A stretch of 64,000 nt of DNA from Escherichia phage IME267: sequence record NC_070983.1; one strand, 5' to 3'. Positions within the stretch are counted from its first letter, which is position 1. Every line of letters starts with the position of its first letter. Under the pieces are notes generated by a model that saw only the letters and a list, made by a program, of their open reading frames with translations, searched no databases and was not told the origin of the DNA. Both the position numbers and the translations under genes were made by a program. Positions 42,548-61,787 of this stretch are shown one piece after another.

Positions 42548-42996
42548 TTTTAGATACCTTTTAGTTTAAGAATTTCGTTACGACAGGATTGAATTTTAGC
42601 TTCGATTGCCCAATACTCAGCGAACATTTCGTCTTCTTGGGCATCGCTTGGAGAGTCGATTAAGTTAAAAGCAAACGGATACAGCTTTCGCTGCTCCGTT
42701 ACCAGTTGTTGAAGTCGGAGTTGTTGATACTCCAGCATTGTCAGGTGAGGCTTAGCTCCCTTGCTTGACATGAGGCTCAACTTTAATCCCCTTCATTTTA
42801 ACATAGTCAGCCAACACGTTATTGATAACGGTTGGAAAAGGGATTTCTACTGGAGAGTCAACCAGCTTCCCAATACCTTCTTGCATCCACTTCTGGATTG
42901 CTCGGAGGTTATCACATCCTGTGCTTGTCATCGGAATACGGCGGGTAGTTACCACGTTATCCAACATCAGTTTACGAACTTCCATAACTATACCTC

Positions 42997-45030
42997 TTAG
43001 TGTTTACCTTTACAGTAATCTGAATTACAGATCACCCTGTTTTCTTTGTTCAGTGAGCAAGTTTCTGCATCACGCCACGGAATTTGTTTATAACAGACTG
43101 CACAAAACCCAATTGAAGTCCAGAGGGCTTTTGTAAACTCAGCTGTTCGTTGTCCATCGTAACTGACAACTGTTTTTCGGAGAGAGGTTGACTTTTCTGG
43201 AAATGTCTCCGCTTTCTCAGCGGGTACCTCCTTTGGGGCATTCTTTGGACCATAAACAGAGATGGCATAAGTATCACCACCACGTTTTTCCAAATACGAA
43301 TTAGGAACATCTGCAAGTGTGATGTCCCCTGAACGTTTTGCTGAGCTGACCATTACAATCATACGGCTAAGCATACGTTCATCAACACGAACAGCTACTT
43401 CAGGACGACGTGGGTTGGTTGTGTCTACTGCTTTAGTCCAAATATAACCTTCAGATAGAGTAACATTCTTTACTTTATCTTTGATTTCTTTGGAGCAGAT
43501 ATAACAAACGTCTTCACCACGAAGTTTACTCATTTCGTTGTCAAACTCGAAATCAGTCTTGACTTCACCACAGATAGCACATACACCCAAAGGCACATCT
43601 TCTTCCTCTTCAGAGGTTTTAGATAACGCTTCGAAGCATTCTGGATGCCAGTATGCCTGATAAGCAAACACAGCCTTACGAGCATCTTTCCAGTCAATGT
43701 GCTTATCACAACCACCACAGTCACCATGAGAGTGAGATTCCCAGAACTTACGAGTGACTTCTACACCATTCTTAGTGATGAAGGAGTCCTCTGCATCAAA
43801 AGGGATATCATCATCAAAATCAGCAGTAGTGCTTTGAGGCTCCTTATCTGTAGCATCAACAAACAGCCCTGAAGTTAGTACGAGGCGAATCATACTGTCC
43901 ACTTCGGAGATACAAGCAATCGTCCCGCGATATACTACCTTTGGGTTTTCAAGAGCCTTAAGATATTCATCTTTGGCTACGTTGTGAACATCCCCTTCGA
44001 CATACTCTTGAGCTTTATCATCGTAGATGTAACCAACCATCTTACCACGATCTGTGTTGTTATAAGCATGGAACTCGTGAGGAATAATATCCACACGACC
44101 ATCACGACGATAAGGAAGACCACGATCGGCAGCCAGTTTGTTCTGGTCTTCAATCGCTTTACGACGACGAATGTCTCCGCTTGTCACGCCGGGCTTGTCG
44201 TCTTTGTTTCCGTAAATGTCGCTTGTGCTGCTGCTTGATTTGTTTGTCTGTTGGTTCTGATAAAGAGAGGAGTTCGAGTAATAGCCGCCCCAGCGACTCG
44301 TTACCGTAAAAACCGGAAGCGTGTGCTCCACCTCTTGAACCAGAGTCATACGACTGTTAGACACATCAAAGATATACTCAGTTCCCACTTTACATTCGAA
44401 GTGGTCATTGATACGGTTCTTATGGGACTTAGAACGCTCTAAAATCCACATAAGCATAGCTTCTTCAGAAGCTCCAAACCAATCCAAACCACAGCGGGCT
44501 AGGTGGAAAGGACGCTCATCATTACGGATAATGTGAAGCGTGTTGTCTTTAGCATCATGCCAAATCAAAGTGAATGCACCATCCAGTTTTTGGATAGTCT
44601 CTGCTGCTCCAATGGTGTTAATTGAGTGGCAGATGTTTTCACTATCAACTTCGAAACGCTTACTGTCAGGAAGGAGATCTTGATCTAACAGGGTTCCATT
44701 ATGAACCAGAGTAATATCCCCGTGAGTAAATGGGTGAGCATTTCGAGCATTGACAGCCCCACGAGTGGCATGTCGGCTGTGACCAACAATCCACGAAGGA
44801 GGAACTACGTAGTTCGTAAGCCCTTTGGTAATATTTGTATATTCTGTCTGGAGCATAAAAGCATAAGAAGGAAGAGCTTCTTTATAAGAGAAGACTTGCT
44901 TTTCACCTTTACGCTGACCAAACACACCAGTTGAGTGCTGTCCACGGAAAACACCAGCATACAGAAGTTGGTTGAAAATGTCCAAATCTGCTGAGGTCAT
45001 GTTGCCGCCAGCTAATACGATACCACAAAT
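42997..45030 (-). CDS. Class-II glutamine amidotransferase-like (Ntn) domain fused to Cys-rich C-terminal region; probable ATT start
   Basis: CGIVLAGG…, …GHSRHATRG…, …NAHPF…, …VHNGTLLD…; C-terminus with several CxxC pairs. Confidence 0.6.
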   Translation of the reverse strand: MCGIVLAGGNMTSADLDIFNQLLYAGVFRGQHSTGVFGQRKGEKQVFSYKEALPSYAFMLQTEYTNITKGLTNYVVPPSWIVGHSRHATRGAVNARNAHPFTHGDITLVHNGTLLDQDLLPDSKRFEVDSENICHSINTIGAAETIQKLDGAFTLIWHDAKDNTLHIIRNDERPFHLARCGLDWFGASEEAMLMWILERSKSHKNRINDHFECKVGTEYIFDVSNSRMTLVQEVEHTLPVFTVTSRWGGYYSNSSLYQNQQTNKSSSSTSDIYGNKDDKPGVTSGDIRRRKAIEDQNKLAADRGLPYRRDGRVDIIPHEFHAYNNTDRGKMVGYIYDDKAQEYVEGDVHNVAKDEYLKALENPKVVYRGTIACISEVDSMIRLVLTSGLFVDATDKEPQSTTADFDDDIPFDAEDSFITKNGVEVTRKFWESHSHGDCGGCDKHIDWKDARKAVFAYQAYWHPECFEALSKTSEEEEDVPLGVCAICGEVKTDFEFDNEMSKLRGEDVCYICSKEIKDKVKNVTLSEGYIWTKAVDTTNPRRPEVAVRVDERMLSRMIVMVSSAKRSGDITLADVPNSYLEKRGGDTYAISVYGPKNAPKEVPAEKAETFPEKSTSLRKTVVSYDGQRTAEFTKALWTSIGFCAVCYKQIPWRDAETCSLNKENRVICNSDYCKGKH

Positions 45031-45107
45031 TTTCTAATCCACCTGAAGGGTAAACCCTTTCATCTAATTAACCTTTAAATGCGCCCTGTATAAGAGCGCC
45101 CGTTGTG

Positions 45108-46208
45108 TTACAGCAGTCGTTCTAATTGCATTTCCAGATGGTCTGGAATATAACCAGTGACGTTATCATCACTGCTACCTGATTCACGCATCAATGCAAA
45201 CATGTGACGAATTTCACGAACCGTTGCGATTCGAGTGCTTTCAATCTGAGGGGTGTAGTAGGTCATGATCTCTTCGTAGACACTGTTGGCATTACCGCGC
45301 ACATATCCCAAGAAACCATAGAAGTCATTCATATCACGTAAGTTGATAAGGACTTCACCATCAGGGCCAGTCTGTTGCACACGAACACGACCAACCAAAG
45401 TCACAGATTGCTCACGACAGAAGAGAATATCACGAGCAAGACGATACCCTTCAGTGAGATCACTGTCTCTTGGAGTATAGTCTAGGGGTAGATGTTGAAT
45501 CATAGGAGCGAAGCGCAGCTCATTCAACTTCTCAACATAAGCTTCATTGTCTAAATCTGCATATTCAACAGCCAGTTTCTTGAGAACCAAGAAGCGGTTG
45601 ACCAGATTCAGAAGTTGGCTCTTTTTCCACTTCGGCTCTGAGATACGGAACTCAACAGAACCAAATTGAGATAGAGGCAAAAGATTAAGGGAGGTATATT
45701 TATCCCAGCTATTAACAAGAGAGTGGAAGAAAGCTTCCCCGTCTCGGTTGAACGCTGACGAAGCATTCATAACTTGTGCTTGAACGACAGCAAAAGCTGG
45801 ACAGAAGTTGCTACGATAGCGATGGTATCCAGAACATTTGAACATCATCTTTTCATAGAACGTCCATCCAAGAATAACTTTCTTAAGGATATTACTATCA
45901 GCGTCACGCATATCCATATGAACGTGAGTGGAGCAGCGCCAAGTTCCCTCGGCTCCAGAATCCTGTACTGCTTCACTCAGATTGTTAATAGCACGAAGTA
46001 ATTCTTCACCGTTGTAAGGTCGTGCACACACTAATTCACAACCATCACGAAGAGAGCCATCTTCAGTACAAACCCACATATCAGCGTCAATATCAGTTGT
46101 ACCTTCGACTTCTAACTCAATACCAACACCACACTGAAAAGCAATACTTGGATGCGGTTCAGATAAGCGAGGGTTACGGTATCCAAAAACTTGTGCTACG
46201 GTTGTCAT
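45108..46208 (-). CDS. GS/GCS2-like carboxylate-amine ligase (amidoligase)
   Basis: …GVGIELEVEG… and …CSTHVHMD… resemble GCS2/YbdK-type metal-binding motifs. Confidence 0.5.
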   Translation of the reverse strand: MTTVAQVFGYRNPRLSEPHPSIAFQCGVGIELEVEGTTDIDADMWVCTEDGSLRDGCELVCARPYNGEELLRAINNLSEAVQDSGAEGTWRCSTHVHMDMRDADSNILKKVILGWTFYEKMMFKCSGYHRYRSNFCPAFAVVQAQVMNASSAFNRDGEAFFHSLVNSWDKYTSLNLLPLSQFGSVEFRISEPKWKKSQLLNLVNRFLVLKKLAVEYADLDNEAYVEKLNELRFAPMIQHLPLDYTPRDSDLTEGYRLARDILFCREQSVTLVGRVRVQQTGPDGEVLINLRDMNDFYGFLGYVRGNANSVYEEIMTYYTPQIESTRIATVREIRHMFALMRESGSSDDNVTGYIPDHLEMQLERLL

Positions 46209-46831
46209 AATGATTCCACCAACTCTACATTATATGATGACAGGTCTGAAGAAATATGCTTGAACTTCTCCAGAAGGTTTAAAGATTGACGACCATTGTC
46301 GCCATAACCAGCTTCAAGAAGCACGTTTCCAACGTAAGCTCCTTTGTAATAAACTTTTCCATCGACAGGGTTGATATAGATGAAACGAGTAACCAACCCT
46401 TCAAACTCTGGATTAAACAGGTTGTACACCAAATCACCCGGAATCGAACGTCCGAGAGAAGGTGGAGTACCACGAAGTTTATTCCCCATCAATCCTTTAG
46501 CTCGCTGACGAACAGGGTTGATATGGGTCCAGCTCACCATGTTATTACCATGCTGAAGGTATCCTACATCTGGAGACTCCAGAATGAGGCTGTGATCAAA
46601 CACTGGGATATTACTAACAATCTGACGTTCAAACTGACCTTCGGAGTTTTTAGTCCAGCGTTCCGCCTCAAACACTAAAGACATTTCAGCGTCGTGTGAG
46701 TAGTCGTCAATATCAAAGTTACCTTGCTGACGAACATCAAGCACATATAGAGGGAGGTTTTTACCATCAGGTGATCGCTGAGCAATCCATGTTCCACAAT
46801 AATAGTGTTGAAAATCTCTTAACAAGCTCAC
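46205..46831 (-). CDS. Hypothetical protein within the amidoligase cluster
   Basis: 208-aa ORF coupled to neighbours. Confidence 0.35.
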   Translation of the reverse strand: MSLLRDFQHYYCGTWIAQRSPDGKNLPLYVLDVRQQGNFDIDDYSHDAEMSLVFEAERWTKNSEGQFERQIVSNIPVFDHSLILESPDVGYLQHGNNMVSWTHINPVRQRAKGLMGNKLRGTPPSLGRSIPGDLVYNLFNPEFEGLVTRFIYINPVDGKVYYKGAYVGNVLLEAGYGDNGRQSLNLLEKFKHISSDLSSYNVELVESL

Positions 46832-46840
46832 AATATCACC

Positions 46841-47647
46841 TTATACAATCTGGAGTTTAGAGGAGAATTTATCCGCTTCTTTAACATCGTTACTGTTGAT
46901 GATGTTGTGAAGCTTTTCAATTGGAAGGCGAGAGTGAAGTGACATCAATACTTCCATATCACAGCCTTGAACAACCTTATCAACTTGCTCATAAACAAAC
47001 TTGCGGGTTGACTTCTCGCCAATCCAGAAGTTAGAAAGAGAACGATATTCAATGCCGTAATCCTTGTAACGAATAGCAGAAGCCTTTCCGTATAACTCTT
47101 TACGACGAGTGTCTTTATCCATGATCACAGCTGGCAAGGACAGGAAGTAATCACACAACACACCCAACATCATTTGAGTCTGACGACTAATTTCCAGCGT
47201 ACCAGCGACGCCAAGGTGAACGTGACCGCCAGCAGTACGCAGACCTTTGTCTGTCGCTACTGGTGAAGGGTTCTTTTGTCCAGTGAAGGCATTGAAATCA
47301 GGAGTACAACCAAATACAAAGGCTGACGGATGGAAAGATTCCAGCTCTTCTGAAGTGAACACATGAGAGCTAATCCCAAGTGCTGCCTCCATGCCACGTT
47401 CATTGAGAACTTTGTTAGTCAGATCAATACCACGCTGAATGTTATCATTAAACGCTTCAAACCCTTTCTGTGGGTTAATATCAAACTCGGCCAGAACGTT
47501 GTCTTCTTGAAGACGAACATCAGGAGCCAGATCAATTTTATTATCTTTAGAACAGCCCAGCTTACCAGCCACAGAGGTGATAATACCGGAAGCAGTACGA
47601 ACAAACATTTCAGGGTCAGAGCCAATAAGGAAAGCGCGCTTAGTCAT
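46841..47647 (-). CDS. Second GS/GCS2-like amidoligase-type protein (tentative)
   Basis: …IGSDPEMFV… and …GGHVHLG…; start set to MTKRAFL with GGAG RBS. Confidence 0.4.
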   Translation of the reverse strand: MTKRAFLIGSDPEMFVRTASGIITSVAGKLGCSKDNKIDLAPDVRLQEDNVLAEFDINPQKGFEAFNDNIQRGIDLTNKVLNERGMEAALGISSHVFTSEELESFHPSAFVFGCTPDFNAFTGQKNPSPVATDKGLRTAGGHVHLGVAGTLEISRQTQMMLGVLCDYFLSLPAVIMDKDTRRKELYGKASAIRYKDYGIEYRSLSNFWIGEKSTRKFVYEQVDKVVQGCDMEVLMSLHSRLPIEKLHNIINSNDVKEADKFSSKLQIV

Positions 47648-48590
47648 TGTAATACTCCACGAGTTCATCAAAAAGGGAAACAACACGAGCACCAGCTTCT
47701 TCTGGTGTCATTGAGGAAGGTACTGCTTGCATCAGACGTTCGATAAAACTTTGAACAGTAATTCTGTCCATACGCTGATCTAATACTTCTCGCTTGTGGC
47801 CTGCACAAGTTGACCAGAGACGTAACCACTCACTCATACTCTCATAATGGTCAGGGTCTTGGTCACGACGACGTGCCATACGACGGAGAACTCCATCATT
47901 ATGGTTTCGTACATAACCATCTCGGTTGTCATCAACACCGAATACATTCTGAACCCATACGTTTTCAGAAAATTCATCAGTGGTGCAAATTAATGGCAGA
48001 AATGCAATTGCACTCATGTCGCCATCAAAATAAGTCGCTGCTGACTCATCGGTTGAGTCTACGTCATTACTATAACACCAGCGACCAAAGAAGTTACGAC
48101 TTAAACCAGCTAAGCGTAGAGCTAAACCGATTCGTTGTCGCTTAAGCAACTCTTCCTTGTCTTGTACGCCTTCCTGAAGGAACTCCATTCCATTAAAATC
48201 ACCATCCAAATAGCTACGGATGGTCATTAGTCCAGTAAACACCTTATCTGCTGGATGGTTTCGAAGGTTCACGGCAATAGAGTTCACCGAAGTGACAGAG
48301 AACATATCTTTATAGCAAGACATTGAGTTAAAAATGTCTGTTGCTTCAACTAAAGCTCTTTCGATATCTTTAGCTGGTACGCCATAAAAATTGTGAGGCC
48401 AGAAGTTAATAACTTCAATTTCTGAAGTTCTGTCACGAAGGCTTGTTCGGTTACGACTTTCACCGTTAATGTCTGTAACAGAATACATGTGCATACAGTT
48501 AAAAGTACCAAAGCAAGCTCTTCCTTTGAACACTGACTCACCGAAATCCTCTGCCGGTGTTACCGGAGCAATCGATGCGGAGATTGACAT
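47640..48590 (-). CDS. Hypothetical protein within the amidoligase cluster
   Basis: 316-aa ORF, no recognisable motif. Confidence 0.35.
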   Translation of the reverse strand: MSISASIAPVTPAEDFGESVFKGRACFGTFNCMHMYSVTDINGESRNRTSLRDRTSEIEVINFWPHNFYGVPAKDIERALVEATDIFNSMSCYKDMFSVTSVNSIAVNLRNHPADKVFTGLMTIRSYLDGDFNGMEFLQEGVQDKEELLKRQRIGLALRLAGLSRNFFGRWCYSNDVDSTDESAATYFDGDMSAIAFLPLICTTDEFSENVWVQNVFGVDDNRDGYVRNHNDGVLRRMARRRDQDPDHYESMSEWLRLWSTCAGHKREVLDQRMDRITVQSFIERLMQAVPSSMTPEEAGARVVSLFDELVEYYND

Positions 48591-48598
48591 ATTCGCCT

Positions 48599-49816
48599 CT
48601 ATTTATTAAAGAATAATTTTTCCATAATGGTTTCCCACTCTTCTGAGGGGAGGGTTGAGAACCCGTTTCCGTGAAGCCTGTTTGTCATGCAACTAATAAT
48701 ATTGTACATGTTGTAGCTTCGGGTGGATTCTGTTCCATTGTTCCAGTTATAACCGAAAACAATTTTATCGAAGGAGGTTTTATCCGTAGTTACTTCTCGG
48801 ATAAACTCAACCAAGAGCGATTTCTCTGTGATGACCGCACGTTCACCATCTGGCAGATTGCAATACTGAGGAAGAAGGATTGGTAAGAACATCGAATTGT
48901 TCACTCGACAATCACGAACACCTTCACTGCGATAGATTAGGCTTGAGAAGTCTTCATCACGCAGGTGTCCTTCACCTTCAGTGTATTCACACTGTCGCCA
49001 CTTGGTCTGGCGAGGCTCAATCATTGTACTACCAACGCCTACTGTATACAGAGACGCTTGGAAAATACATGAATCGTAATCATTCCCTGTTAAAGCAACT
49101 TGCTCGTTGCCGAACACATCCACTGAAGAGTTAATCAGTCGGCTGAATGCAAGAGAGGCTAGTGGAGACCAACCTTTCTTATACATCTTGTTCAGCATTT
49201 CATACACAGCAGATTTTTCATCATCTGTATAGAATGTACGATTCAGCATCAGATAGAACAGAGCGCGATCAGCAGGACAACCATCAGTACAAACACCCAT
49301 GAATCCTACTTCATGCCATACCAGACATGAGTCAGAATCTTTATCCATGAATGCTTCAAAGGCTTCCATTACAGCCCTGTCAGTAACATCAGGACGGTTG
49401 TTTTCTTCTGCCCATGTTTCTACATGAGAAGGAGGACGAGGGTCTCCATTCTCCACCCCTTCGCGGAAATATTGAGTGGTAATAGGCTTTTTATCACCAT
49501 AACGTTTTACACCATAAGCGGGAAGGTGTGTACCAGAGTTCCAGATGTACTTAATTTCGGACATAGGCATCATGTTTTCGAGAACGTTCTCTTCAGCAGT
49601 GCCTTGACGAACCATCATATTTTCACTCCACACCTTAATGCGGATATTCCAGCCGTAGTTGCTGTCATACGTGTTATAATAATCAGGATCACCATCTTCA
49701 TCTTCATCATAATCACCACCCTGATAGTAACCTGCTTTCAGGAAACCATAACAAGGAGGCCAGACGGTTACAACATCATCTGATTCTTTCCAGCTTTGAA
49801 GTGTTACAGGGAACAT
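48599..49816 (-). CDS. Hypothetical protein within the amidoligase cluster
   Basis: 405-aa ORF with acidic Tyr-rich N-terminus. Confidence 0.35.
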   Translation of the reverse strand: MFPVTLQSWKESDDVVTVWPPCYGFLKAGYYQGGDYDEDEDGDPDYYNTYDSNYGWNIRIKVWSENMMVRQGTAEENVLENMMPMSEIKYIWNSGTHLPAYGVKRYGDKKPITTQYFREGVENGDPRPPSHVETWAEENNRPDVTDRAVMEAFEAFMDKDSDSCLVWHEVGFMGVCTDGCPADRALFYLMLNRTFYTDDEKSAVYEMLNKMYKKGWSPLASLAFSRLINSSVDVFGNEQVALTGNDYDSCIFQASLYTVGVGSTMIEPRQTKWRQCEYTEGEGHLRDEDFSSLIYRSEGVRDCRVNNSMFLPILLPQYCNLPDGERAVITEKSLLVEFIREVTTDKTSFDKIVFGYNWNNGTESTRSYNMYNIISCMTNRLHGNGFSTLPSEEWETIMEKLFFNK

Positions 49817-49827
49817 CTTTTACCTCT

Positions 49828-50190
49828 TTACTCTGCTACCAAAAGGCTCAGAGATTTGCGAATGTAGTCAATACTACGGAAGTTTCGATAACTCTCTTGG
49901 AAGCGCATCTTTTCAAACTCTGCTTCCTGAAGCTCTACCTCTGCTGCTTTATATCCTGATAAAGCTAAACTTACCACATCCTGAGGTAAGGTATTACGAC
50001 GGCGAATAAGATATTTATTCGCTTTTAGTTTACCTTGTGCACGAGCCATTTTGGCCTTTGCCGCCTTGATACCATGAGAAATCCAAAGCAGTTGCTGTTT
50101 CAGATCTTCCTCATCCATACCACCTAAATCATTTGCTACTTTATGCAGCGTAGACAGGTTCACATGGCCTTTAATGGGGCGTAGGTTCAT
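49828..50190 (-). CDS. Hypothetical protein
   Basis: 120-aa helical ORF; start overlaps stop of upstream small ORF (ATGA). Confidence 0.35.
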   Translation of the reverse strand: MNLRPIKGHVNLSTLHKVANDLGGMDEEDLKQQLLWISHGIKAAKAKMARAQGKLKANKYLIRRRNTLPQDVVSLALSGYKAAEVELQEAEFEKMRFQESYRNFRSIDYIRKSLSLLVAE

Positions 50191-50354
50191 AACTTCTCCT
50201 GTTTGTCACATTGATTGGTTAGCCAGTTGTAAGACCCACTGTTGTTCTTGCTTAACTCGCAAGATGCAAAAGAGTACATCCTGACAAACCCCACAGTGGC
50301 TAAGCAAATAAAGATTGCTGCCAATAAGAATTTAGCTTTCAACTTATTATCCAT
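50187..50354 (-). CDS. Small signal-peptide protein (55 aa), not in the ORF track
   Basis: Translated by hand: MDNKLKAKFLLAAIFICLATVGFV…; AAGAAGAGG RBS; ATGA coupling to next gene. Confidence 0.35.
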   Translation of the reverse strand: MDNKLKAKFLLAAIFICLATVGFVRMYSFASCELSKNNSGSYNWLTNQCDKQEKL

Positions 50355-50372
50355 ACAACCTCTTCTTTGAGC

Positions 50373-50400
50373 TTAAAAAAGGACTCTCCTAAGAGAGCCA
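50373..50400 (-). terminator. Terminator-like hairpin on - strand followed by U6
   Basis: GGCTCTC-TTAG-GAGAGTCC then TTTTTT on - strand. Confidence 0.4.
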
Positions 50401-50489
50401 AGCTTTAAGGCCAATTAAATAGATATCACCCAATATCTGTGGATAACCTGCTCTTAAAATATTCTATCCGACGGATGTTCGAGGATTAT

Positions 50490-50600
50490 TCCTCTCCCTA
50501 GCATCGGCCCCATACGGGAAAGATTAAATTAAGTTTAGGTTAGTTGAGCCAGAATAGCTCACATAGCCCTCTGATACTCACAAGGGCTATAGATGTTACT
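50490..50600. repeat. Copy 1 of ~110-nt repeated element with conserved hairpin, immediately 3' of paralog gene 50596..50844
   Basis: Blocks tctccctagc…tagttgagtgag…ctcacATAGCCCTctgatactcacaAGGGCTATa…gatgttact shared with 56030..56150. Confidence 0.6.
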
Positions 50601-50844
50601 CTGTGGCTCCGTCGAATCGGAGGATTGCTGCTGGAACAGGGTATACTTCCAGATCTTCATCCAGTCGGTATAGATGCCCTGTACTTAAATTTACAGCTGT
50701 TACTGGCTTAGAGTGGCCTCCAGCCTGTATGGAAGGAACTCTGATAAAGAACTCTTCTGGATATTCAACAGAGTGGAACACACTTCCTGAATAAAGATCT
50801 TTTATTTTAGAAGTTTGTTTAGGAGTTTTATCAGCAATTTTCAT
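50596..50844 (-). CDS. Small protein, L-x-x-G-(D/E/S)-x-F paralog family
   Basis: …IKDLYSGSVFH…YPVPAAI…. Confidence 0.45.
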   Translation of the reverse strand: MKIADKTPKQTSKIKDLYSGSVFHSVEYPEEFFIRVPSIQAGGHSKPVTAVNLSTGHLYRLDEDLEVYPVPAAILRFDGATE

Positions 50845-51105
50845 TACAGACCTTTCTTAGCACGATCTTTGGCAGTTTTGCCAGTGCGGATACGATGGGA
50901 AACATTAACCAGCTCGCCACCTTCGACGATGGTTACGCTTTTGTTTTTCGCAATATCAAACACAGTTTTCTCTGTGCCGCCCAGACGAATCTGTTTAGGC
51001 TCACTGTGGGTCTGAGTTGATTTAGACTGGAACTGGAACGGCTGACGGATGGCATCAATTGCGCTAACTTTAGACATGTTTTTATTACCTTACATTAAAG
51101 AGAGA

Positions 51106-51534
51106 TTAAACAACGAATTGGAACGCTTCGTATCCAAACTTGTATAAGAAATCGTGTTTGAACTTTACTACACGACCACGATCGCGGAAAGCTTTCAGGC
51201 GACTGCTGAACCCAACCATTGGCTCAGGGTCAATAGGGCTACGAATCTTCATAGCTACAGAGTGCAGCTTGAAGCGTTTACCAGTGCTACAGGCCATCAT
51301 CACATACTCCATACGAGTAGTCCAGATGTTGAGCACCATGCTTGTTTTCTCCGCTGACCAACCAGTCTTGCGGGCGATTTCTTTATGGACATTAAGCTCC
51401 AAAGGAAGAGGGAATTGCTTGTTGAATGAAGCCGGATATAGCTTGACCAGAAGGTCAATGTTTTCTTTATACGTTAAGTAAGCCAATTTCTTGCTTACGT
51501 TAGGGAATTTCCCAGACATTTTTTGAAGCTCCAA
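51106..51534 (-). CDS. ProQ/FinO-domain-like RNA-binding protein
   Basis: …KKLAYLTYKENIDLLVKLYPASFNKQFPLPLELNVHKEI…LNIWTT… resembles the ProQ N-terminal FinO-like domain. Confidence 0.45.
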   Translation of the reverse strand: MELQKMSGKFPNVSKKLAYLTYKENIDLLVKLYPASFNKQFPLPLELNVHKEIARKTGWSAEKTSMVLNIWTTRMEYVMMACSTGKRFKLHSVAMKIRSPIDPEPMVGFSSRLKAFRDRGRVVKFKHDFLYKFGYEAFQFVV

Positions 51535-51965
51535 AACAGCGCCGAAAAGAGAGGCGTCATAGTAGCTAAAAGGAGGAGAGAAGAGGGCTTATTTACTTGC
51601 CTTTTTCTGTCCGTTAATGTACCAGATAACTGAACCGTCAGGCTGTCGTTGACCGAAGCCTTTCAAGTTAACCATTTCTTCTTCAGAGTAGGCACGTTTT
51701 CTCACTGATTTTCTCCTGTCAGTAGAAGGTGTGTGTAGAGTCGTCGTTCATAGATAACCAAACGAAGAAGACAATCACACAGAAAGCAATAATACCGAGA
51801 GTTGCAAGGATTATAGTGTTAGCTAATGTGATATCTAACACGCTTTGCAGATATATAAAGAACTGTACGACACCACATACCATCAGCACAACCCCAACGA
51901 CAATGAGGAGCCAATATGTGCAGAGAAGGACTGCATCTAATAGTGATACATACTTTGGATGATCT

Positions 51966-52232
51966 TTATGTCTCACTGATCTTTTCCACTAAATCCAGAG
52001 TTGCTGATTCAAATACAACACCAACTACCATATTAGGTGCCATATTACGAACGTATCCGCTCTGCATAGACACGGCCCGAGAGTATTCAGAACCGTTAGA
52101 ACTTTTGTTTACCTTCATGTAAAGGGTTTGCTCTTTATCTTCTTTCAGAGTAAAGAAAGAGCCGGGAAGAAGCCTCTGAACAGTCAGAGGGATATCTGCA
52201 ACATGAGTCTTATTGATAGTAAGAACTGTCAT
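51966..52232 (-). CDS. Small protein, L-x-x-G-(D/E/S)-x-F paralog family
   Basis: …VQRLLPGSFFTL…. Confidence 0.4.
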   Translation of the reverse strand: MTVLTINKTHVADIPLTVQRLLPGSFFTLKEDKEQTLYMKVNKSSNGSEYSRAVSMQSGYVRNMAPNMVVGVVFESATLDLVEKISET

Positions 52233-52235
52233 TGC

Positions 52236-52490
52236 TTATTCCTTAATAGTTGCTTCAGCTTTAACAGGAATAACAGCAACATCTTTACGAGGTGCTGTCG
52301 CTCGGCCCGTATTAAGACAGGCTACAAGTCTGTGCTCATCTGCACCCTTAATACAAAGTCGAGTAGAGAACTCAGTAGACAGTAAGATGTACAAATCATC
52401 ATCTTCACTGTTAGGGTACATGAAGCAATCCCCAAGTCGCAAAGCACTGAGAGGTATTGAGTTTTTACCTGCTGGTTTATTAACTTTCAT
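52236..52490 (-). CDS. Small protein, L-x-x-G-(D/E/S)-x-F paralog family
   Basis: …SALRLGDCFMY…VIPV…; start set to internal Met. Confidence 0.4.
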   Translation of the reverse strand: MKVNKPAGKNSIPLSALRLGDCFMYPNSEDDDLYILLSTEFSTRLCIKGADEHRLVACLNTGRATAPRKDVAVIPVKAEATIKE

Positions 52491-53323
52491 TTTACCACCT
52501 TTAGTTATGGACCAAATAGAATTATTAAAGAGTGCACTAGCTCTGGGCCACGTTGTGAACATCGGCCTACCTTTCACAACTAATCAACTAATGCACTCAT
52601 TAATAGCTTATCTACTCCAATAAAATAGGGGGAGGGGACGAATCCTCCCATATCCTATTAATTAATATTGCATGTAAGACCTAACAATCCGATGCTGTAG
52701 TGGATAGCGTAAAACGCTTACCGGCATTAAACCCAGCCCATGAGGGGCTTATGTGAATAAAATGCTCAACATTGAGCGGTTAGTTGATAGGAGACCTGAA
52801 GTCCTATCTCAAAGGACTCTCGTAAGAATCCTTCACGATATTACTTAGTAATAAAGACTGTCATCTTGTCCAACACCCACTCTAACAGGAGCATGAAAGG
52901 GATGAGTAAGAGGAATAATAACAAAATAGGCCAGAAGAATATTGCTATCCAGATAGAACATTCATCAGGCTTACCACTCCACGGGTTGTGGAAGAAGTTA
53001 TAGAACGTATTGGTTTTGAAGCACCACTTAACTACGATGGCTGCTAACCACCAACCAATAACATAAATCAGGAAGACATACGATGCTGTAACCATTGACC
53101 ATTCCATTGATAGTTGCGAGTGACCACGTTTCCGTGGATAAGAAAGTGCTGGCGGCGAAGGATATCTTTAACGTTGTAATAGGCAGCGTTTCCGATATGA
53201 CCTTCTTTGATAAGCCAGCGCAGGTTACGAATATCAACCAACAACATCTTTACTTGCTGTTGGCATGAAGTTTGAGCTGCTGTTTCAAGCAGAGATTTCG
53301 TATCAGAATAATGACCAGACATA

Positions 53324-53629
53324 TCACCACTCCTTACCTGTTGTTGTCACAGAGCCACCACACCATAATGCGGTGTCAACCACAACCTTATCCGGTGTAG
53401 ACTTCTCTTCGTTGATAGACGGATTCGCATTAGAACAAGTTGCCCCGTTATATCGCATATCAACCTCACCACTAGGAATCTTCTCCCCGCTATGCCAACG
53501 GGAAACACAGACACCTTCTACAGATAATGCACACCATCCATCAGGACGATGCTGTACACAGCCTGTAAGAGCTACACAGGCGATAAAGATACAGGTTAAG
53601 GTAATTACACCACCCCAACTCATAAGCAC
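53324..53629 (-). CDS. Putative lipoprotein
   Basis: Signal peptide with lipobox-like LTGC; Cys-rich mature part. Confidence 0.4.
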
Positions 53630-53763
53630 CTCCTATTTGATTTGGTGGACTATCTGGAATCGAACCAGAAGCTCACTAAGAAAGCAATTCCCACTGTTAT
53701 AAAAGCACTTGCCTCAACAGGGATACACTAACTCTGGTGCCGTACCCATACTAGCCCTAAATG

Positions 53764-53839
53764 TGGTGCACCCTACAGGACTCGAACCTGTAACCAACGA
53801 CTTAGAAGGTCGCTGCTCTGTCCGTTGAGCTAAGGGTGC
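53764..53839 (-). tRNA. tRNA-Arg(UCU): tRNA-Arg (anticodon UCU), 76 nt with encoded CCA
   Basis: Hand-folded cloverleaf: 7-bp acceptor stem, D arm, anticodon loop CTTCTAA, T arm ACAGG-TTCGAGT-CCTGT, 3' ACCA. Confidence 0.8.
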
Positions 53840-53848
53840 TGAATTTGT

Positions 53849-54058
53849 TTAACTGAAGATACGCAAGGCCACATCGTGACCGATATGACCGGGAACTTTA
53901 TGCTGTTCTATTTTCAAACAGTGTTTACAGATACGAGATACACGAGATTCTTTTCTCTCTACTGGAGTGTCTTTAGCGTGAGTGATATGTAAGTTTTCAG
54001 TGACCACCCATTCATGTTTACATCCAGAATCTTCGGGCTTTTTCTTACGAAAGAACAT
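53849..54058 (-). CDS. Small Cys/His-rich protein, tandem paralog family
   Basis: …GCKHEW…CKHC…; start set to internal Met. Confidence 0.35.
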   Translation of the reverse strand: MFFRKKKPEDSGCKHEWVVTENLHITHAKDTPVERKESRVSRICKHCLKIEQHKVPGHIGHDVALRIFS

Positions 54059-54066
54059 AACACCTC

Positions 54067-54231
54067 TTAGATCAGATCTGTTTTCTTGTGCAGACCACAC
54101 ACTTTACAGCGAGAGTAGATACGCAACCCTTGTCGCTCTCTGTCAGTAAGTTTATTTGTGATCGTCAGTTCATAAGTATGAAGATCTTCCCACTCATGGA
54201 AATGAAAGAAACGTTTGAACCATTTAATCAT
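54067..54231 (-). CDS. Small Cys/His-rich protein (54 aa), not in the ORF track; tandem paralog
   Basis: Hand translation MIKWFKRFFHFHEWEDLHTYELTITNKLTDRERQGLRIYSRCKVCGLHKKTDLI*. Confidence 0.45.
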   Translation of the reverse strand: MIKWFKRFFHFHEWEDLHTYELTITNKLTDRERQGLRIYSRCKVCGLHKKTDLI

Positions 54232-54240
54232 AATGATTCC

Positions 54241-54402
54241 TTAGATTACATCACGATGACTAACATCACCACACACCTTACACTGAATAACGTAACGTGT
54301 GCCCTTGTCATTGTTCCCATCTGAATCTGTATAGACCAGAGGACGGGTGTTAATAATCTTCCAATCATGACAATGGAAGACACGCTTTAGCCATTTAATC
54401 AT
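54241..54402 (-). CDS. Small Cys/His-rich protein, tandem paralog
   Basis: MIKWLKRVFHCHDWK…CKVCGDVSH…. Confidence 0.45.
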   Translation of the reverse strand: MIKWLKRVFHCHDWKIINTRPLVYTDSDGNNDKGTRYVIQCKVCGDVSHRDVI

Positions 54403-55469
54403 ACTAAGCACACGCCGGTAATTCAATTAACTGAGGAGTACGACAAGGGCCATCCTCATACACACCTACTAGTGTTGGCATGTAAGGCCCAGCGCACTGG
54501 TATTCATCGAACAGTTCATTGTAAGTAGGCTTCCACTTCCAAGCCCACACATAACCCATTCGATCAATGGCAATGTAACGAGTGTTCAGAGGAACCTGCA
54601 TCATCACATCACCAACTGCTATTACTTTCGTAATAACTACTGCTCGGAAGTTTGTCTTCATGACTTTGCAGCCTCCATCATTTTATTCATTTTAGCCACA
54701 CCTTTACGGATAAGAGGCATAAATTCATCAGCCAGTTCAGTGGATAAAAGTTTAAGCCCGCCTGATTTAATACCGTTCACCGCCTTCTCAACTTCATCCG
54801 ACAGCAATGTCATTGTTAACCACGGGGATTTTATTACCACAGTAAAGCCCGGTTCATACCGCGAGTGACTGTAGGTGAACTCTAAATGAGTAACACCGGG
54901 CATCTTAGACATTTGAGCACGGATATCTACATTAGGGTTGCAGCGAGTTGAAGATGAAATTGTCATGGCGCTTTAATCTCAATCTGAACGTTGACGACGA
55001 ATACAGTATGGTTTGCACTGTACACTGAAGTGCCTATGATTGGCTTATCATCACTGAGGATTTCAACAGCGTGCTCAAGGTTAATCTTCAGATGAAGACG
55101 CCCTGATTCCATGAAGAAATCACCAGCACGTATCTCACCGAACTTAGCTGGCACACCGATAGAGGGTATCAGTATGTCAGTGCGACCTTTACGGTCAAAT
55201 AAACGATTGAACATATCAACCCCTTATGTAATATCAACCTCAAACCAACAGGTAAGAGCTTTTTCATTGTTGCGTTTTGGCTCAAAGGATTTAACAACCG
55301 ATAATACTCGGCGCTGTTCTCCATCAAACCAGATAGTTTCATCTTTTTCAGGGAGTAGGTTGTGTGCAGCACAAACGATTTCACCTAGCACAACCTGTCT
55401 GCCATCTTGCTTACGAACTAAACGAATGTTCATAACAACCTCTCTTGTTAGTTTAAGTAAGAGTTGTCC

Positions 55470-55510
55470 CTTAATTAAAACAACAAAGGCCACCCCTAAG
55501 GGCAGCCTCT
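55470..55510 (-). terminator. Terminator-like hairpin on - strand with U-rich tail
   Basis: GGCTGCCC-TTAG-GGGTGGCC (two GU pairs) then TTTGTTGTTTT. Confidence 0.4.
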
Positions 55511-56029
55511 TATTTAAGCGCAAGCACTACGCAGTTTGTTATTCAAGAAGCGATCTTCTGCATTATACAGGAATGCATAGAACAACTCTTTTGCTACATC
55601 CCGATCGCAATTGAGACATTTAGAGATCTGTAACAACAAACCATCACGACTATTAGGATGGTCAATTATCGCAAGACGAATAATCTCACGAATACCAATG
55701 TCATGCTCAGCCGCCATAGAACCAATCACCCTGACGTTTACGAATGTTAGTTGTCAGACGAAGCATGGCAGACTCAATCTTCAGAGCACCATTTGCTACT
55801 GCATCCATACGTTCAGGACGGTTCATACGTTTGGTTGTCTTTTTCATAATGTTCTCTCTTTATTGATGGAGGCAGGATTGCCAGTTGATATAAAGGGAAG
55901 CCCTACACGTTAAGGCTTCCGCTTGTACAAACTGTCGAGAACTCTCTACCCCTAGATTGTTCTCTATCCCAAACCGATACATACCCCTACATATCGGAAT
56001 GCCATTCGAAAATTAACAGGTTTTAGTCT

Positions 56030-56150
56030 ATCACCGGATGTTTGAGACAAGTCTCTCCCTAGCGGTGAGCCATATGGCGTTGAGATTATAGTTAATTGAG
56101 GAACATCCTCACATAGCCCTCTGATAAACACAAGGGCTATAAGTCGATGT
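56030..56150. repeat. Copy 2 of ~110-nt repeated element with conserved hairpin, immediately 3' of paralog gene 56150..56374
   Basis: ctcacATAGCCCTctgataaacacaAGGGCTATa differs from copy 1 at only 2 loop positions. Confidence 0.6.
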
Positions 56151-56374
56151 TACTTGTTGGTTAGTCGTGCGTTAGGTACAGGTCTGACTACAGTCGATTT
56201 ACACTCAGAATCACGCTTACCTGTATAAAGGTTAACAAAATAACTTTTGTTTTCACCATAACACGCAGTACGCATGTAATATTGAGTTTCGTTATAGTTA
56301 AACTGGAAGACTTCACCCGGATTTAGATCACCGAGAGTTACAATCTCTGGTGTATTATCGATATCAATTTTCAT
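56150..56374 (-). CDS. Small protein, L-x-x-G-(D/E/S)-x-F paralog family
   Basis: …TLGDLNPGEVFQF…VRPVPNA…. Confidence 0.45.
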   Translation of the reverse strand: MKIDIDNTPEIVTLGDLNPGEVFQFNYNETQYYMRTACYGENKSYFVNLYTGKRDSECKSTVVRPVPNARLTNK

Positions 56375-56605
56375 TTAACCACCAATATTAGTCACTTGAA
56401 CATCAAATACAGGGATAACTTCATGATGTTCCTGTAACTGGAATAGTGTTCCCTGACGAAGACCAACCACACGATGCATATCATTCAGGCAGGTGTCTGT
56501 CTTTAGATAGAGGTGTTCAGAGTTAGTTGGTAGACGGAATACATCACCCGGACGTAGATCGCTGAGTTTTTTAGTAACAACTAAAGATGGGAGATTAATT
56601 TTCAT
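56375..56605 (-). CDS. Small protein, L-x-x-G-(D/E/S)-x-F paralog family
   Basis: …LSDLRPGDVFRL…VIPVFDV…. Confidence 0.45.
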   Translation of the reverse strand: MKINLPSLVVTKKLSDLRPGDVFRLPTNSEHLYLKTDTCLNDMHRVVGLRQGTLFQLQEHHEVIPVFDVQVTNIGG

Positions 56606-56761
56606 TTGATTAACACCAAATCAGTACGACGTTCGAAGGAAGGGGAGGATTCACCATTCCACTGAACAAGATAACAGAGAACACCATCAATCGTTGTTCT
56701 CCGACGAATAACACCTGTAACAGTTCCACCAACAAGGCGAACGGTGTCGCCAACGGTAAAT

Positions 56762-57067
56762 TTAACCTTTGATCGCATCTCCTGTTTCCTCATTCTGGCG
56801 TTTAATTTCTTCAGTGAGTTGTTTGTTTAGATCTTGAATACGCTTAATCTCCCAACCCAAAGAAGCCAAACGATCGTTACGTGCTTCGATTTGTTCCTGC
56901 ATTTTGAGTAATTTGGAACGAACATCAGCATTAAAAACTTCTTCTTGCTTAAGAAGGAACTCGTAACGACGCTTCCAGCTTGCTGATTTATTTCTTAAAA
57001 TAATAAACCCTAGAGTAGAAACCGTTACAGTGAGTACGAAAAGGAACTTATAAACCTCTAAAGACAT
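56762..57067 (-). CDS. Small membrane-anchored coiled-coil protein
   Basis: N-terminal TM helix then charged helical region. Confidence 0.35.
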   Translation of the reverse strand: MSLEVYKFLFVLTVTVSTLGFIILRNKSASWKRRYEFLLKQEEVFNADVRSKLLKMQEQIEARNDRLASLGWEIKRIQDLNKQLTEEIKRQNEETGDAIKG

Positions 57068-57268
57068 ATCTTTATCCTCTTAAAGTAAGATATTATAAGA
57101 AATATTATTTAGAATTTATTATTTCTAAACTTAATTTCTATCAATAATTTTCAGAGGTCTATATACAGTCATTACCTCTGGTCCCAAATCACTTCCACTT
57201 TTTACAGAGAAAATCATAAGTGTGTGATTTATAAGGAAATTTAGTTTGTCAATATTGGCACCTACGAA

Positions 57269-57655
57269 TCAGTCACGGGAGCTATTATTGAACACTAAAT
57301 CACCACAATACATCGGATTGGTATACCACTTTGGCACCCCTTCGCTCTTACTCTGAAAGTATGTACCGCTGTACAAAGGCACATAACCTTTCTTCAGTGC
57401 ACGCCTTGCAAGCCGCTCGCTCTCTCTGATTGATTTCTTTATCAGAGGGTTATCATCACGAATTAGCTTTACATAACGCTTAAAAGGTTTCTCCTTCTTT
57501 AATAGGACGGGTATCCACTCGAACTGGTTTCGTTGATTTATAACCTGCTCGGCAGTCAGTTTTCGTTGTGACATTCTGTTTATTACGGTATCCGCTACTA
57601 ATGCTTTGCAAGCGGTTGGCTGATTCCCTGCCTCATAATAAATAGTCAATGTCAA
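57269..57655 (-). CDS. SleB/CwlJ-like cell-wall hydrolase domain protein
   Basis: …YYEAGNQPTACKALVADTVINRM…NQFEW…GYVPLYSGTYFQ… resembles the Hydrolase_2 family. Confidence 0.45.
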   Translation of the reverse strand: MTLTIYYEAGNQPTACKALVADTVINRMSQRKLTAEQVINQRNQFEWIPVLLKKEKPFKRYVKLIRDDNPLIKKSIRESERLARRALKKGYVPLYSGTYFQSKSEGVPKWYTNPMYCGDLVFNNSSRD

Positions 57656-57707
57656 AAGTAGCTGGGCTGTCGTTATCAGAACTTACTACCCCCTTGTTTT
57701 ACGGGCA

Positions 57708-57734
57708 TAAAAAAGCCCCATCCGAAGACGGGGC
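57708..57734 (-). terminator. Strong intrinsic terminator on - strand (8-bp stem, UUCG loop, U6)
   Basis: GCCCCGTC-TTCG-GATGGGGC followed by TTTTTT on - strand. Confidence 0.65.
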
Positions 57735-57892
57735 GACCTGAAAAGTGAACATGACTTCACTCATTTAAGAACCCTCTCAAAGACTCTTAAAAAAGAGGCC
57801 TCGTTAAAGGCCCGGTCAAATGACCATCCAATAGGGATTGAACCATGCCAATGATTCACAAAGGGAGTTCCCTTTAGGCATCACTAGCTACG

Positions 57893-57914
57893 AAAAAAGC
57901 CGCACAAAGGCGGC
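57893..57914 (-). terminator. Intrinsic terminator on - strand (GCCGC-CTTTGT-GCGGC + U6)
   Basis: Read directly; second terminator in the same 290-nt intergenic region. Confidence 0.5.
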
Positions 57915-57971
57915 AGACAAAGACGCTCAAGAAGAGCGTCATAGTAGTTGACCACTGGTACAGAAGAGGGC

Positions 57972-58415
57972 TTACTTAACTCTTGCTGTTTTGAGTGGGT
58001 CAATATATTTTTCAACTCCCCACTTATGTTTACTATCAGCGTAGAAAACATCAGGTGCACATTGGCTAGTAGTAGGGAATGCTTTCGGCGGCTTAGTGCT
58101 ACCTTTATTCTTCTGCTTACCTTTAGTGCGACCGTTGCAGAAGATTTCTAAACGCTTTTCTTGTTCCGTTTTCGCCGCCCCGTTGATTAACAAGGAACGC
58201 TTGTGATCAGCAAGAAGAAGCGCATCAGCACGATGAACACGACGACCTAGTACCTTTGGTACAGGAGATTCTTTATGTTCTTGAGCGGCCTGTTTCATAG
58301 CCCTGCGTTTAAGGCTACGTTTGCTAATATGGTTAACAGCGGCTGGCTTTTCTTTTTCCAGCTCATTCATAGAGAACACTCGTCCGCCTTTCATGCTGAT
58401 TTTAGATTTAGCCAT
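57972..58415 (-). CDS. Basic hypothetical protein
   Basis: 147-aa Lys/Arg-rich ORF. Confidence 0.35.
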   Translation of the reverse strand: MAKSKISMKGGRVFSMNELEKEKPAAVNHISKRSLKRRAMKQAAQEHKESPVPKVLGRRVHRADALLLADHKRSLLINGAAKTEQEKRLEIFCNGRTKGKQKNKGSTKPPKAFPTTSQCAPDVFYADSKHKWGVEKYIDPLKTARVK

Positions 58416-58694
58416 TGTTTTATTCCTTTCGCTGATAAATTATATCGTGCAAGCCTTACCACATAGCAAGGCTTAACCAAATAACTTAATCAATTAAACT
58501 AAACGATTTCCAACTACGTGTAATTGCTACCTTTTCGCCATCAAAGAGAACACTTACAGAGATCAGTTTACCGCGACAACTGGATACCGTGGTAATACGT
58601 CCGGTTAATGCCTTACCTTTATTCAGGTAGTGATAGCGGACACGACGTCCTAACAAACGAGTAGCTTTCTTCTCTAACGTGCTTAAGCTGGTCA

Positions 58695-58916
58695 TTAAAT
58701 AGCCCCTTTATATTGGAGTGATCTTACACGACGATACATAACAGTTGATGCACTAATCGCCGCTTGTTTTCTTTCGTGCTCATGCTGATTCTTTCGAATC
58801 TTATCCATCTCGGCATCATTACGACGACGTTGTAAGATTCTGCTACATTTGCGATGGTTATTATTAGCACGTGCTTTCTTACAGATAGGGCAAAGGTGGG
58901 ATTGAGTTAAAATCAT
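58695..58916 (-). CDS. Small basic protein with CxxC motif
   Basis: …HLCPICKK…. Confidence 0.3.
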   Translation of the reverse strand: MILTQSHLCPICKKARANNNHRKCSRILQRRRNDAEMDKIRKNQHEHERKQAAISASTVMYRRVRSLQYKGAI

Positions 58917-59245
58917 TTGCGAAGCCCTAACTTACGAAGTAGACGACCTAACTTAGTTTCCTGCGTAATGGTGTAGGTAACAGAGTTTTCGATTAACGCT
59001 TGTTCTTGAATCGGCGACGGATACCATTCACCGGTAAGGATGCATTTGCATTCGATTCCATATCTATCGGTTTTACGATAGGTCATATTGTTTAAGATAT
59101 TACGATACATCTTAACTTCTGTTTTCAATTTTGGCATGGTGATCATCTCTTTTTAGTTTCTTTGATTAGCACACTGAATCAATGCACTAGTAAAAGAAAA
59201 GGCGCTACCCTTTCGAATAGCGCCTTACTTGTTCTTTATTGTGGG

Positions 59246-61066: not shown

Positions 61067-61095
61067 ATTATGAATCATGTTGTTTTCGCTGTCAA
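61067..61095 (-). promoter_or_regulatory. Near-consensus sigma70-type promoter on - strand (TTGACA-17-CATAAT)
   Basis: -35 TTGACA (rc of 61090-61095), 17-nt spacer, -10 CATAAT (rc of 61067-61072). Confidence 0.5.
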
Positions 61096-61379
61096 CCACT
61101 TTTTAATCTTTTTTCGTCGTTCCCGCTATTGGGAGGATATATCAATCAGCTTTATTTGATTGAAGACTAAGCGGTGATGCTTATCTTATGATTCATATTG
61201 TTAAAGAGCGGTTACTACATTTACAGCTTAACACATCGTGTTAGCTTGTCAAACTCTTTTTATCATCTTCTTTTAATTCCTTTCCCTTATCTCGCGTGAA
61301 TCTATGCGAAAGGGCAAGATGATAAGTTTTTAAAGAGCGGGATATTTCACGTCATCGCTGACTATGCTCACTATATATC

Positions 61380-61722: not shown

Positions 61723-61787
61723 TTAAAGCATCAGATAGATTATGACCATAGGCATGACCACGGCACAATACAGGAGAAAGATTAGTC

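Follow-up and report, generated by a model that had tools for sequence, protein, structure and literature searches.

A minimal FinO/ProQ-domain protein with a conserved predicted RNA 3'-end pocket in the early gene cluster of a phiEco32-like phage

The window analyzed here, i.e. the whole 64,000-nt stretch of Escherichia phage IME267 (NC_070983.1), carries at 51106-51534 a minus-strand open reading frame, present in the ORF list, in which a first-pass annotation that gave no strand had recognized a FinO-like RNA chaperone. The ORF exists as proposed and its translated stretch, KKLAYLTYKENIDLLVKLYPASFNKQFPLPLELN, holds the strings quoted at that time (LAYL, LVKLYPASF and PLPL, all found in the 137-aa translation), but its start had to be moved. 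In fact, the TTG at 51534 chosen by the ORF finder overlaps the Shine-Dalgarno GGAG of the gene, and the true start is almost certainly the ATG at 51519-51517, the same with which SU7_91 is annotated in the SU7 record (Table 1). Judging from its sequence, the ORF 51106..51519 is a functional protein-coding gene and not a chance ORF, since comparison with the SU7 and ECBP2 orthologues gives a pN/pS of 0.08-0.09 (17-18.5 synonymous and 5-6.5 non-synonymous differences). The protein matches PHROG 18901 at 1e-61, shares 94-100% identity with its orthologues in about 20 SU7-like phages, and has a pI of 10.0 and a net charge of +13 (24 Lys/Arg versus 11 Asp/Glu).

Table 1. Window coordinates of the FinO-domain gene, its predicted parts and the surrounding features
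Feature	Position	Strand	Remarks
88-aa gene	52232-51966	-	First of the local unit
85-aa membrane protein gene	51976-51719	-	Local unit
38-aa ORF, phi32_94 homologue	51705-51589	-	GTG start, GGAG upstream; PHROG 14557 at 1e-27
Indel versus phiEco32	51078..51539		463 nt here versus 60 nt between phi32_93 and phi32_94
Shine-Dalgarno GGAG	51529..51532	-	9-nt spacer to ATG 51519-51517; sequence reading; RBS annotated at the equivalent place in SU7
CDS of the 137-aa FinO-domain protein	51106..51519	-	ATG 51519-51517, TAA 51108-51106; codons verified
FinO/ProQ domain core, residues ~10-110	51190..51492	-	Helices 10-27, 44-52, 56-66, 70-79; beta-hairpin 81-83/93-95; helix 98-110
N-cap region of helix 56-66	51340..51357	-	Ser55 cap kept; Ala56 and Ser60 replace RocC Lys71/Arg75 (ProQ Lys54/Arg58)
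Predicted 3'-terminal-nucleotide pocket	51274..51306	-	Codons Tyr72 (51304-51306) to Arg82 (51274-51276); equivalent to RocC Tyr87/Arg97, ProQ Tyr70/Arg80
C-terminal amphipathic/aromatic helix, residues 114-133	51121..51180	-	Motif F120-x3-F124-x3-F128-G129-x3-F133
77-aa gene, phi32_93 homologue	51077-50844	-	Directly downstream of the FinO-domain gene
82-aa gene	50844-50596	-	Local unit, followed by 229 nt of non-coding RNA
Intrinsic terminator closing the unit of the FinO-domain gene	50375..50399	-	GGCUCUC-UUAG-GAGAGUC + C + U6, A-rich 5' flank; terminator scan

All genes around the FinO-domain gene lie on the minus strand, and its neighbors have no known function. In the SU7 record a promoter is predicted at the place equivalent to window ~52486-52513 and a terminator at ~50370-50411; the terminator at 50375-50399 is thus annotated in SU7, and it shows a compensatory change in SE131. 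The 38-aa ORF at 51589-51705, directly upstream of the FinO-domain gene, is conserved and is unannotated in the SU7 record, and the 70-nt spacer that separates the two contains a weak hairpin with a U-run (CGCC-9nt-GGCG-CUGUUUU). In phiEco32 and SU10 the early, sigma70-dependent class comprises CDS 69-125/128, whose promoters lie close to the right end and drive leftward transcription (PMC4281155, PMC8948821, PMC12276001). Here, the strand that encodes the gene has near-consensus sigma70 promoters upstream of it, at 63562, 61398 and 61095. Based on synteny with this block and on secondary descriptions of the phiEco32 classes, we infer that the FinO-domain gene belongs to the early, sigma70-driven leftward block, in agreement with its earlier placement among early genes. 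The minus-strand region 60158-61787, about 1.6 kb with no ORFs of at least 70 aa and with the promoters 61398 and 61095 (TTGACA-17-TATAGT/CATAAT type), presumably corresponds to what has been described in phiEco32 and SU10 as the early promoter region. At 61502-61510 an exact phage-sigma motif, TAATGTATA, overlaps a sigma70-like -10 element (TATACT), and phiEco32 has no such motif at that place. The early cluster also contains a tRNA-Arg (anticodon TCT) at 53764-53839 (minus strand), as in SU7 and phiEco32.

The source phage is a phiEco32-like podovirus of the subfamily Gordonclarkvirinae, and its closest relatives are SU7-like (genus Suseptimavirus: vB_EcoP-101114UKE3, HC-25922, MLP3, SU7, Bas87/Bas88, EK010 and ECBP2), with 90-98% nucleotide identity over 50000-53000. 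When the window was compared by blastn with the phiEco32 locus, the flanks 50841-51077 and 51540-51693 aligned at 84-87% and nothing matched between them; what was gained or lost at this place is in essence just the FinO-domain gene, with no extra non-coding DNA. A close orthologue is found in ~20 of ~100 related phage records, in the SU7-like group only, and the ~80 further Gordonclarkvirinae records have only flanking pieces of the region in common. The gene is accessory: SU7-like phages have it and phiEco32 does not. Distant homologues, with 28-41% identity, are found in virulent phages of the Salmonella 7-11/SE131-like and Erwinia Ea21-4-like types, in Hafnia, Enterobacter and Cronobacter phages, in Aeromonas LAh-like phages and in one Shewanella phage, and identity within the clade is only ~30%. 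In metagenomic clusters of the family the longest contigs measure 76-100 kb, the size of phage genomes. No homologue was found on plasmids by tblastn at E<=0.01.

A review of the FinO/ProQ family names phage-encoded members only in passing (PMC9977716). Several homologues already carry a fitting label: in UniProt, SU7 gp91 (A0A8F3C9D8) and G0X555 of Salmonella phage 7-11 are named 'ProQ/FinO domain-containing protein', and distant homologues were labeled by their depositors 'ProQ/FINO family protein', 'sRNA-binding protein' or 'RNA chaperone', gp115 of Ea21-4-like Erwinia phages reading 'sRNA-binding protein' and 'proQ: RNA chaperone'. These labeled proteins, together with Aeromonas LAh_9 gp024 and Shewanella KASIA p031, span 28-96% identity, belong to the same clade and lie among small early or accessory genes, the 7-11-like homologues differing from the protein described here by an additional C-terminal region of ~100 aa. 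The GenBank records of the close orthologues read 'hypothetical protein' or have no annotation. The FinO-domain call itself is therefore one that automatic annotation had made, in UniProt for orthologues and in GenBank for distant homologues, and is unsurprising to a specialist. The literature searched contained no paper on this gene and none characterizing, or giving RNA-binding data for, any lytic-phage FinO-domain protein.

FinO/ProQ proteins are a major class of bacterial RNA chaperones, alongside Hfq and CsrA, and to our knowledge the characterized members are all chromosomal or plasmid-borne. The resemblance to the FinO-like domain of ProQ put forward in the first-pass annotation is borne out by Pfam, by the family profile and by hhalign. 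Taken alone, the 137-aa protein matches PF04352 (ProQ/FinO) over residues 18-87 with 25.8 bits (E 1.1e-5), which falls just below the curated gathering cutoff of 27 bits. Other searches with the single protein returned no significant match in the PDB (phmmer), only a noise-level L31 match in NCBIfam, and no similarity to the N-terminal domain of E. coli ProQ (BLASTP, E 1.9), and a word-indexed homologue search recovered only a 98%-identical cluster, the representative of which, P0001, has a precomputed PF04352 match. The distant relatives came from an exhaustive HMMER search over 1.84 billion representatives, which yielded 42 relatives at E<=1e-3 and the 43-member family alignment A1, all members but one matching PF04352 individually at E<=0.01 (best 1e-26). 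Against the PDB the A1 profile matched solved FinO-domain proteins and nothing else, the best being the ProQ N-terminal domain (5nb9, 4.9e-17), followed by RocC (7rgu/7rgt/7rgs, ~3e-13, best 2.5e-13), FinO (1dvo, 3.9e-11), Lpp1663 (6s10, 1.5e-10) and NMB1681 (3mw6, 2.1e-7). Alignment of the family with the E. coli ProQ N-terminal domain by hhalign gave 98.8% probability and an E-value of 9.7e-17 at 18% identity; this low identity and the BLASTP result rule out a recent capture of the host proQ. Pfam matches to DUF7343 and Ribosomal_L31 were regarded as noise, being short, below threshold and not common to the family.

An AlphaFold2 model of the 137-aa protein, built on A1, has a mean pLDDT of 90.6 and a pTM of 0.85, with pLDDT >=90 in 113 of the 137 residues, and displays the helical bundle with a beta-hairpin before the last domain helix by which the FinO fold is recognized. 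When the model was compared with the PDB by Foldseek, the top 26 places were all taken by FinO-domain chains (RocC, Lpp1663, FinO and NMB1681; probability 0.99-1.00), after which the E-value drops to ~1, and among predicted viral structures the best matches were the SU7 orthologue and G0X555 of Salmonella phage 7-11, other phage proteins coming next. The assignment of the FinO fold is secure, because it is given by both the AlphaFold2 model and the Foldseek matches; a prediction without this fold had been named beforehand as the outcome that would speak against the proposal, and the fold is predicted, with Foldseek and hhalign in agreement. Beyond the domain the model shows a further helix, spanning residues 114-128, which lies outside the 94-99 residues that align with solved FinO domains; this extra aromatic helix is conserved in 26 of 43 clade members.

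Neither a linker nor a Tudor-like or otherwise beta-rich domain follows the FinO domain in the 137-aa model, and no second Pfam domain was found; the architecture is that of a single-domain 'minimal ProQ', as in NMB1681 or Lpp1663. These two proteins, from Neisseria meningitidis (PDB 3mw6) and Legionella (PDB 6s10), are chromosomal, whereas the present one is encoded by a virulent phage, shares ~16-18% identity with them, lacks the conserved N-cap Arg/Lys and has the extra aromatic C-terminal helix. E. coli ProQ, in contrast, possesses a linker and a Tudor-like C-terminal domain, and RocC of Legionella pneumophila (PDB 7rgt/7rgu, with the RocR terminator) carries a long extension at its C terminus and works with a single dedicated sRNA. 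Unlike FinO of F-like plasmids (PDB 1dvo) and FopA of pCol1B9, the phage protein lacks a long N-terminal helix and a disordered arm, and neither a homologue on plasmids (tblastn) nor a cis-antisense RNA partner was found for it.

The structure of RocC with the RocR terminator reveals two recognition devices, a 3'-nucleotide pocket and a helix N-terminus (PMC9674577). In the pocket, the 3'-terminal nucleotide is buried by Tyr87, Arg97, the beta-turn Gly52, Thr82, Asn115 and Lys119, Tyr87 and Arg97 being among the most conserved residues of the family and Gly52 'nearly completely conserved' (PMC9674577). At the helix N-terminus, Ser70 acts as the cap and Lys71, Lys73 and Arg75 clamp consecutive hairpin phosphates, so that an R75D substitution lowers the affinity >100-fold and K71D ~12-fold (PMC9674577). 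Based on residue correspondences taken from the HMM and hhalign registers, Tyr72 and Arg82 of the phage protein, the equivalents of Tyr70 and Arg80 in E. coli ProQ (N-terminal domain, PDB 5nb9), keep the 10-residue spacing of RocC and ProQ and are both found in 42/42 aligned clade members, and Arg69 is likewise invariant (42/42). Further pocket positions are retained, Thr67 corresponding to RocC Thr82 and Arg107 lying at the position of Lys119. The beta-turn glycine before helix 2, RocC Gly52, is Asn43 here (LELNV versus L-x-IGI); 37 of 43 clade members have the glycine, and asparagine occurs only in the SU7-like group. In the second device, the Ser55 cap matches Ser53 of ProQ, but RocC Lys71 and Arg75 correspond to Ala56 and Ser60, and ProQ Arg32, Lys35, Lys54 and Arg58 to Leu38, Glu41, Ala56 and Ser60, respectively, with Lys58 at the RocC Lys73 position and Glu57 in place of RocC Ser72. 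Across the clade, the N-cap Ser/Thr is present in 31/43 members and an arginine at the R75 position in 6/43 only, and the conserved basic positions are the clade's own, namely Lys18, Lys34, Arg69 and Arg82. With a domain charge of +9, the present protein is the most basic member of the clade (median +3). These residue comparisons suggest that 3'-end recognition is preserved and that the hairpin grip, and hence the specificity, has probably diverged.

The loss of the canonical N-cap Lys/Arg, the replacement of the beta-turn Gly by Asn and the extra conserved aromatic C-terminal helix may also be read as signs of a fold re-purposed for protein-protein or DNA contacts, e.g. with RNA polymerase, the degradosome or ribosomes, and devoid of canonical RNA binding. 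We regard this as very improbable: the residues for the 3'-terminal phosphate, Tyr72 and Arg82, and also Arg69 are invariant in a clade of ~30% identity, which is hard to account for unless RNA 3' ends are bound, the protein is strongly basic, and its structural matches are to FinO domains only. With little confidence, we may instead hypothesize that the clade is a minimal FinO lineage of virulent phages which kept the pocket and replaced the duplex clamp (by Lys18, Lys34, Arg69 and the aromatic C-terminal helix), thereby acquiring a distinct RNA specificity and a specific client. If this were true, the client could be a structured RNA that is present twice in the genome, described below, or labile host antitoxin or defense RNAs, and the protein could determine how far early transcripts are read through or how stable they are, or could dampen abortive infection once host transcription has been shut off. 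The interest of the clade rests mainly on this divergent RNA-contact surface and on lytic-phage FinO proteins being unstudied by experiment; the literature found holds no study of what a strictly lytic phage gains from its own FinO/ProQ protein. The clade is compact (~100-150 aa), occurs in several unrelated virulent phages and shows natural variation at the positions known from RocC and ProQ to contact RNA, and because of this variation it offers a convenient system for studying how FinO domains select RNAs and whether phages interfere with the metabolism of RNA 3' ends in the course of takeover. Phages Bas87 and Bas88 of the BASEL collection, whose orthologues are 97% identical, make genetics feasible.

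The ligands recognized by FinO domains consist of a terminator hairpin and, after it, a 3' tail with four U or more and a free 3'-OH (PMC7367173; PMC9674577). ProQ, when bound, shields 3' ends, and poly(A) polymerase I is among the enzymes kept away (PMC12086684). The early cluster (44001-64000) contains 28 terminator-like hairpins, about twice the 13.4 +/- 4.0 found in shuffles, and 24 of them are on the transcribed strand; the terminator at 50375-50399 is, from this analysis, a candidate ligand of the FinO domain. Strong terminators of the cluster also lie at 57734, 57813 and 59226, and those at 57813 and 50399 carry an identical tail, CTTTTTTAAG. The terminator at 50399-50375 lies in mid-cluster, ~20 nt from the next start codon (ATG 50354), which leaves no room for a promoter, and therefore the early genes downstream must depend on read-through.

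We consider it probable, if far from certain, that the protein is an early-made 3'-end binder which shields or tunes terminator-ended phage transcripts. As a minimal FinO protein of the virulent-phage clade, it would be made from sigma70-driven leftward early transcripts, and the 3'-terminal nucleotide of an RNA would dock in the Tyr72/Arg82 pocket with the adjacent hairpin as support, so that 3' ends of the intrinsic-terminator type would most likely be the ones recognized. Because the early cluster is dense in ends with a hairpin and U-tail, the phage itself would most likely supply the clients, namely its early transcripts and 3'UTR-derived RNAs. By binding, the protein would block their decay by 3'-exonucleases and by poly(A)-dependent routes. 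The gp79 protein of phiEco32-type phages shuts off sigma70 transcription, own early promoters included (PMC12276001), and once this has happened early gene expression would be prolonged or tuned. Against this model stand the loss of the N-cap basic residues, replaced by Ala56 and Ser60 in this protein and missing from most clade members, the exchange of the near-universal beta-turn Gly for Asn43, and the fact that phiEco32 and ~80 relatives share these terminators and RNA elements but not the gene, which is therefore dispensable for the basic program. Moreover, no computed feature distinguishes phage from host RNA clients.

The protein may be directed at the host instead, binding the 3' ends of host sRNAs, of type I antitoxin RNAs and of mRNA 3'UTRs, the class bound by E. 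coli ProQ, and would then either displace ProQ and rewire host post-transcriptional regulation or stabilize labile antitoxin RNAs, averting toxin activation and abortive infection after shut-off. The fold and the 3'-end pocket are those of ProQ, the gene is placed for early expression, and it has been gained or lost alone, with no co-transferred RNA. Homologues occur here and there in virulent phages that are unrelated to each other and infect several hosts, a distribution to be expected of an accessory gene of takeover or counter-defense, and ProQ ligands include toxin-antitoxin, prophage and island RNAs (PMC9977716). Nevertheless, with 18% identity to ProQ and neither equivalents of Lys54, Arg58, Arg32 and Lys35 nor the linker and Tudor domain, the protein is not expected to have an identical client range, and we hold a host-directed role to be rather unlikely.

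The FinO-FinP and FopA-Inc systems of mobile elements and RocC-RocR are specialists (PMC9977716, PMC7491321, PMC9674577), in which FinO, FopA and RocC stabilize specific sRNAs and match them to their targets (PMC9977716). A protein of this type would stabilize one cognate phage antisense or trans RNA and pair it with a target mRNA, timing a step of the infection. No convincing plus-strand promoter/terminator pair is found around the gene; the sole terminator-like site on the plus strand, 51443-51458, is weak and has no promoter ahead of it on that strand, and a scan of the local 5 kb gave 6 such sites versus 3.6 +/- 1.9 by chance (~1.3 sd). An antisense partner encoded beside the gene is not supported, given the weakness of this site and its lack of a promoter, and the indel, likewise, brings no extra non-coding DNA. 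A trans-acting candidate is nonetheless present, in the form of a conserved, terminator-ended structured RNA at the end of the transcription unit of the FinO-domain gene, and both SU7-like and 7-11-like phages have this RNA as well as the gene. However, phiEco32-like phages without the gene conserve this RNA just as well, and it is absent from a 44.6-kb stretch of Erwinia phage phiEa21-4 that has a homologue. We thus see only a slim chance that the protein is a dedicated matchmaker, and continue to favor the protection of early transcripts in general.

The structured RNA itself is found in two diverged copies per genome, at 50375-50599 and 56020-56149 of the window (both minus strand), and elsewhere in phiEco32 (L003, 1936-2070 and 7905-8030), SE131 (L004, 20366-20509) and 7-11 (L015, 6257-6400). 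In folding, the 229 nt that separate the 82-aa gene from the terminator surpass 199 of 200 shuffles (z -2.7), and they are conserved at 85-87% in phiEco32-like phages and at ~71-76% in Salmonella SE131/7-11. In alignment A3, which holds 16 distinct instances of the element, four helices with 23 pairs are seen, 7 of the pairs having compensatory double changes; 99.4% of the cells are paired, versus 33-48% with the partners slid, and the covariation score is 0.317 versus 0.02-0.06. The internal loops CUAGGG(A/C) and (G/A)AACAUC are invariant, and copy 1 runs into the canonical terminator at 50399-50375. Rfam 15 contains no family for the element at either gathering or permissive thresholds, E. 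coli genomes have no counterpart, and among IMG/VR contigs the exact core is confined to those of the phiEco32-like and 7-11-like types. A role as a put-like cis-antiterminator or as a stable 3'UTR-derived RNA is plausible. The element cannot be an obligate, family-wide partner of the FinO-domain protein, because phiEco32 has both copies without the gene and a covariance model finds none in the phiEa21-4 stretch with the homologue.

In three lineages the FinO-domain gene lies beside NAD+ salvage genes (PRPP synthetase, or prs with nadV/NAMPT), namely in Erwinia phiEa21-4 (L016, 40738-43999), Salmonella SE131 (L004, 14352-18601) and L005 (205-1518), i.e. in Ea21-4-like phages, 7-11-like phages and one metagenomic contig. 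The source phage, in contrast, has no prs-nadV; the linkage is absent from this window, Aeromonas LAh_9 and Shewanella KASIA, and is thus limited to certain lineages. Downstream of the block of small genes, 39747-47692 (minus strand) corresponds to the known phiEco32-type enzyme cluster, with a GGACT/AIG2-like cyclotransferase, DUF7020, a class-II glutamine amidotransferase, Amidoligase_2 and a phiEco32-like COOH-NH2 ligase. Finally, five small early proteins of 74-88 aa, two of which match PHROG 7832, are paralogues with 19-30% identity and the motif L..L.pG..F...e.lY...L.tG...V.PV, encoded on the minus strand at 50596-50844, 51966-52232, 52236-52490, 56150-56374 and 56375-56605. Each copy of the structured RNA directly follows one of these genes, the stop codon lying within a conserved AGTAAC, which suggests the duplication of a gene-plus-RNA module.
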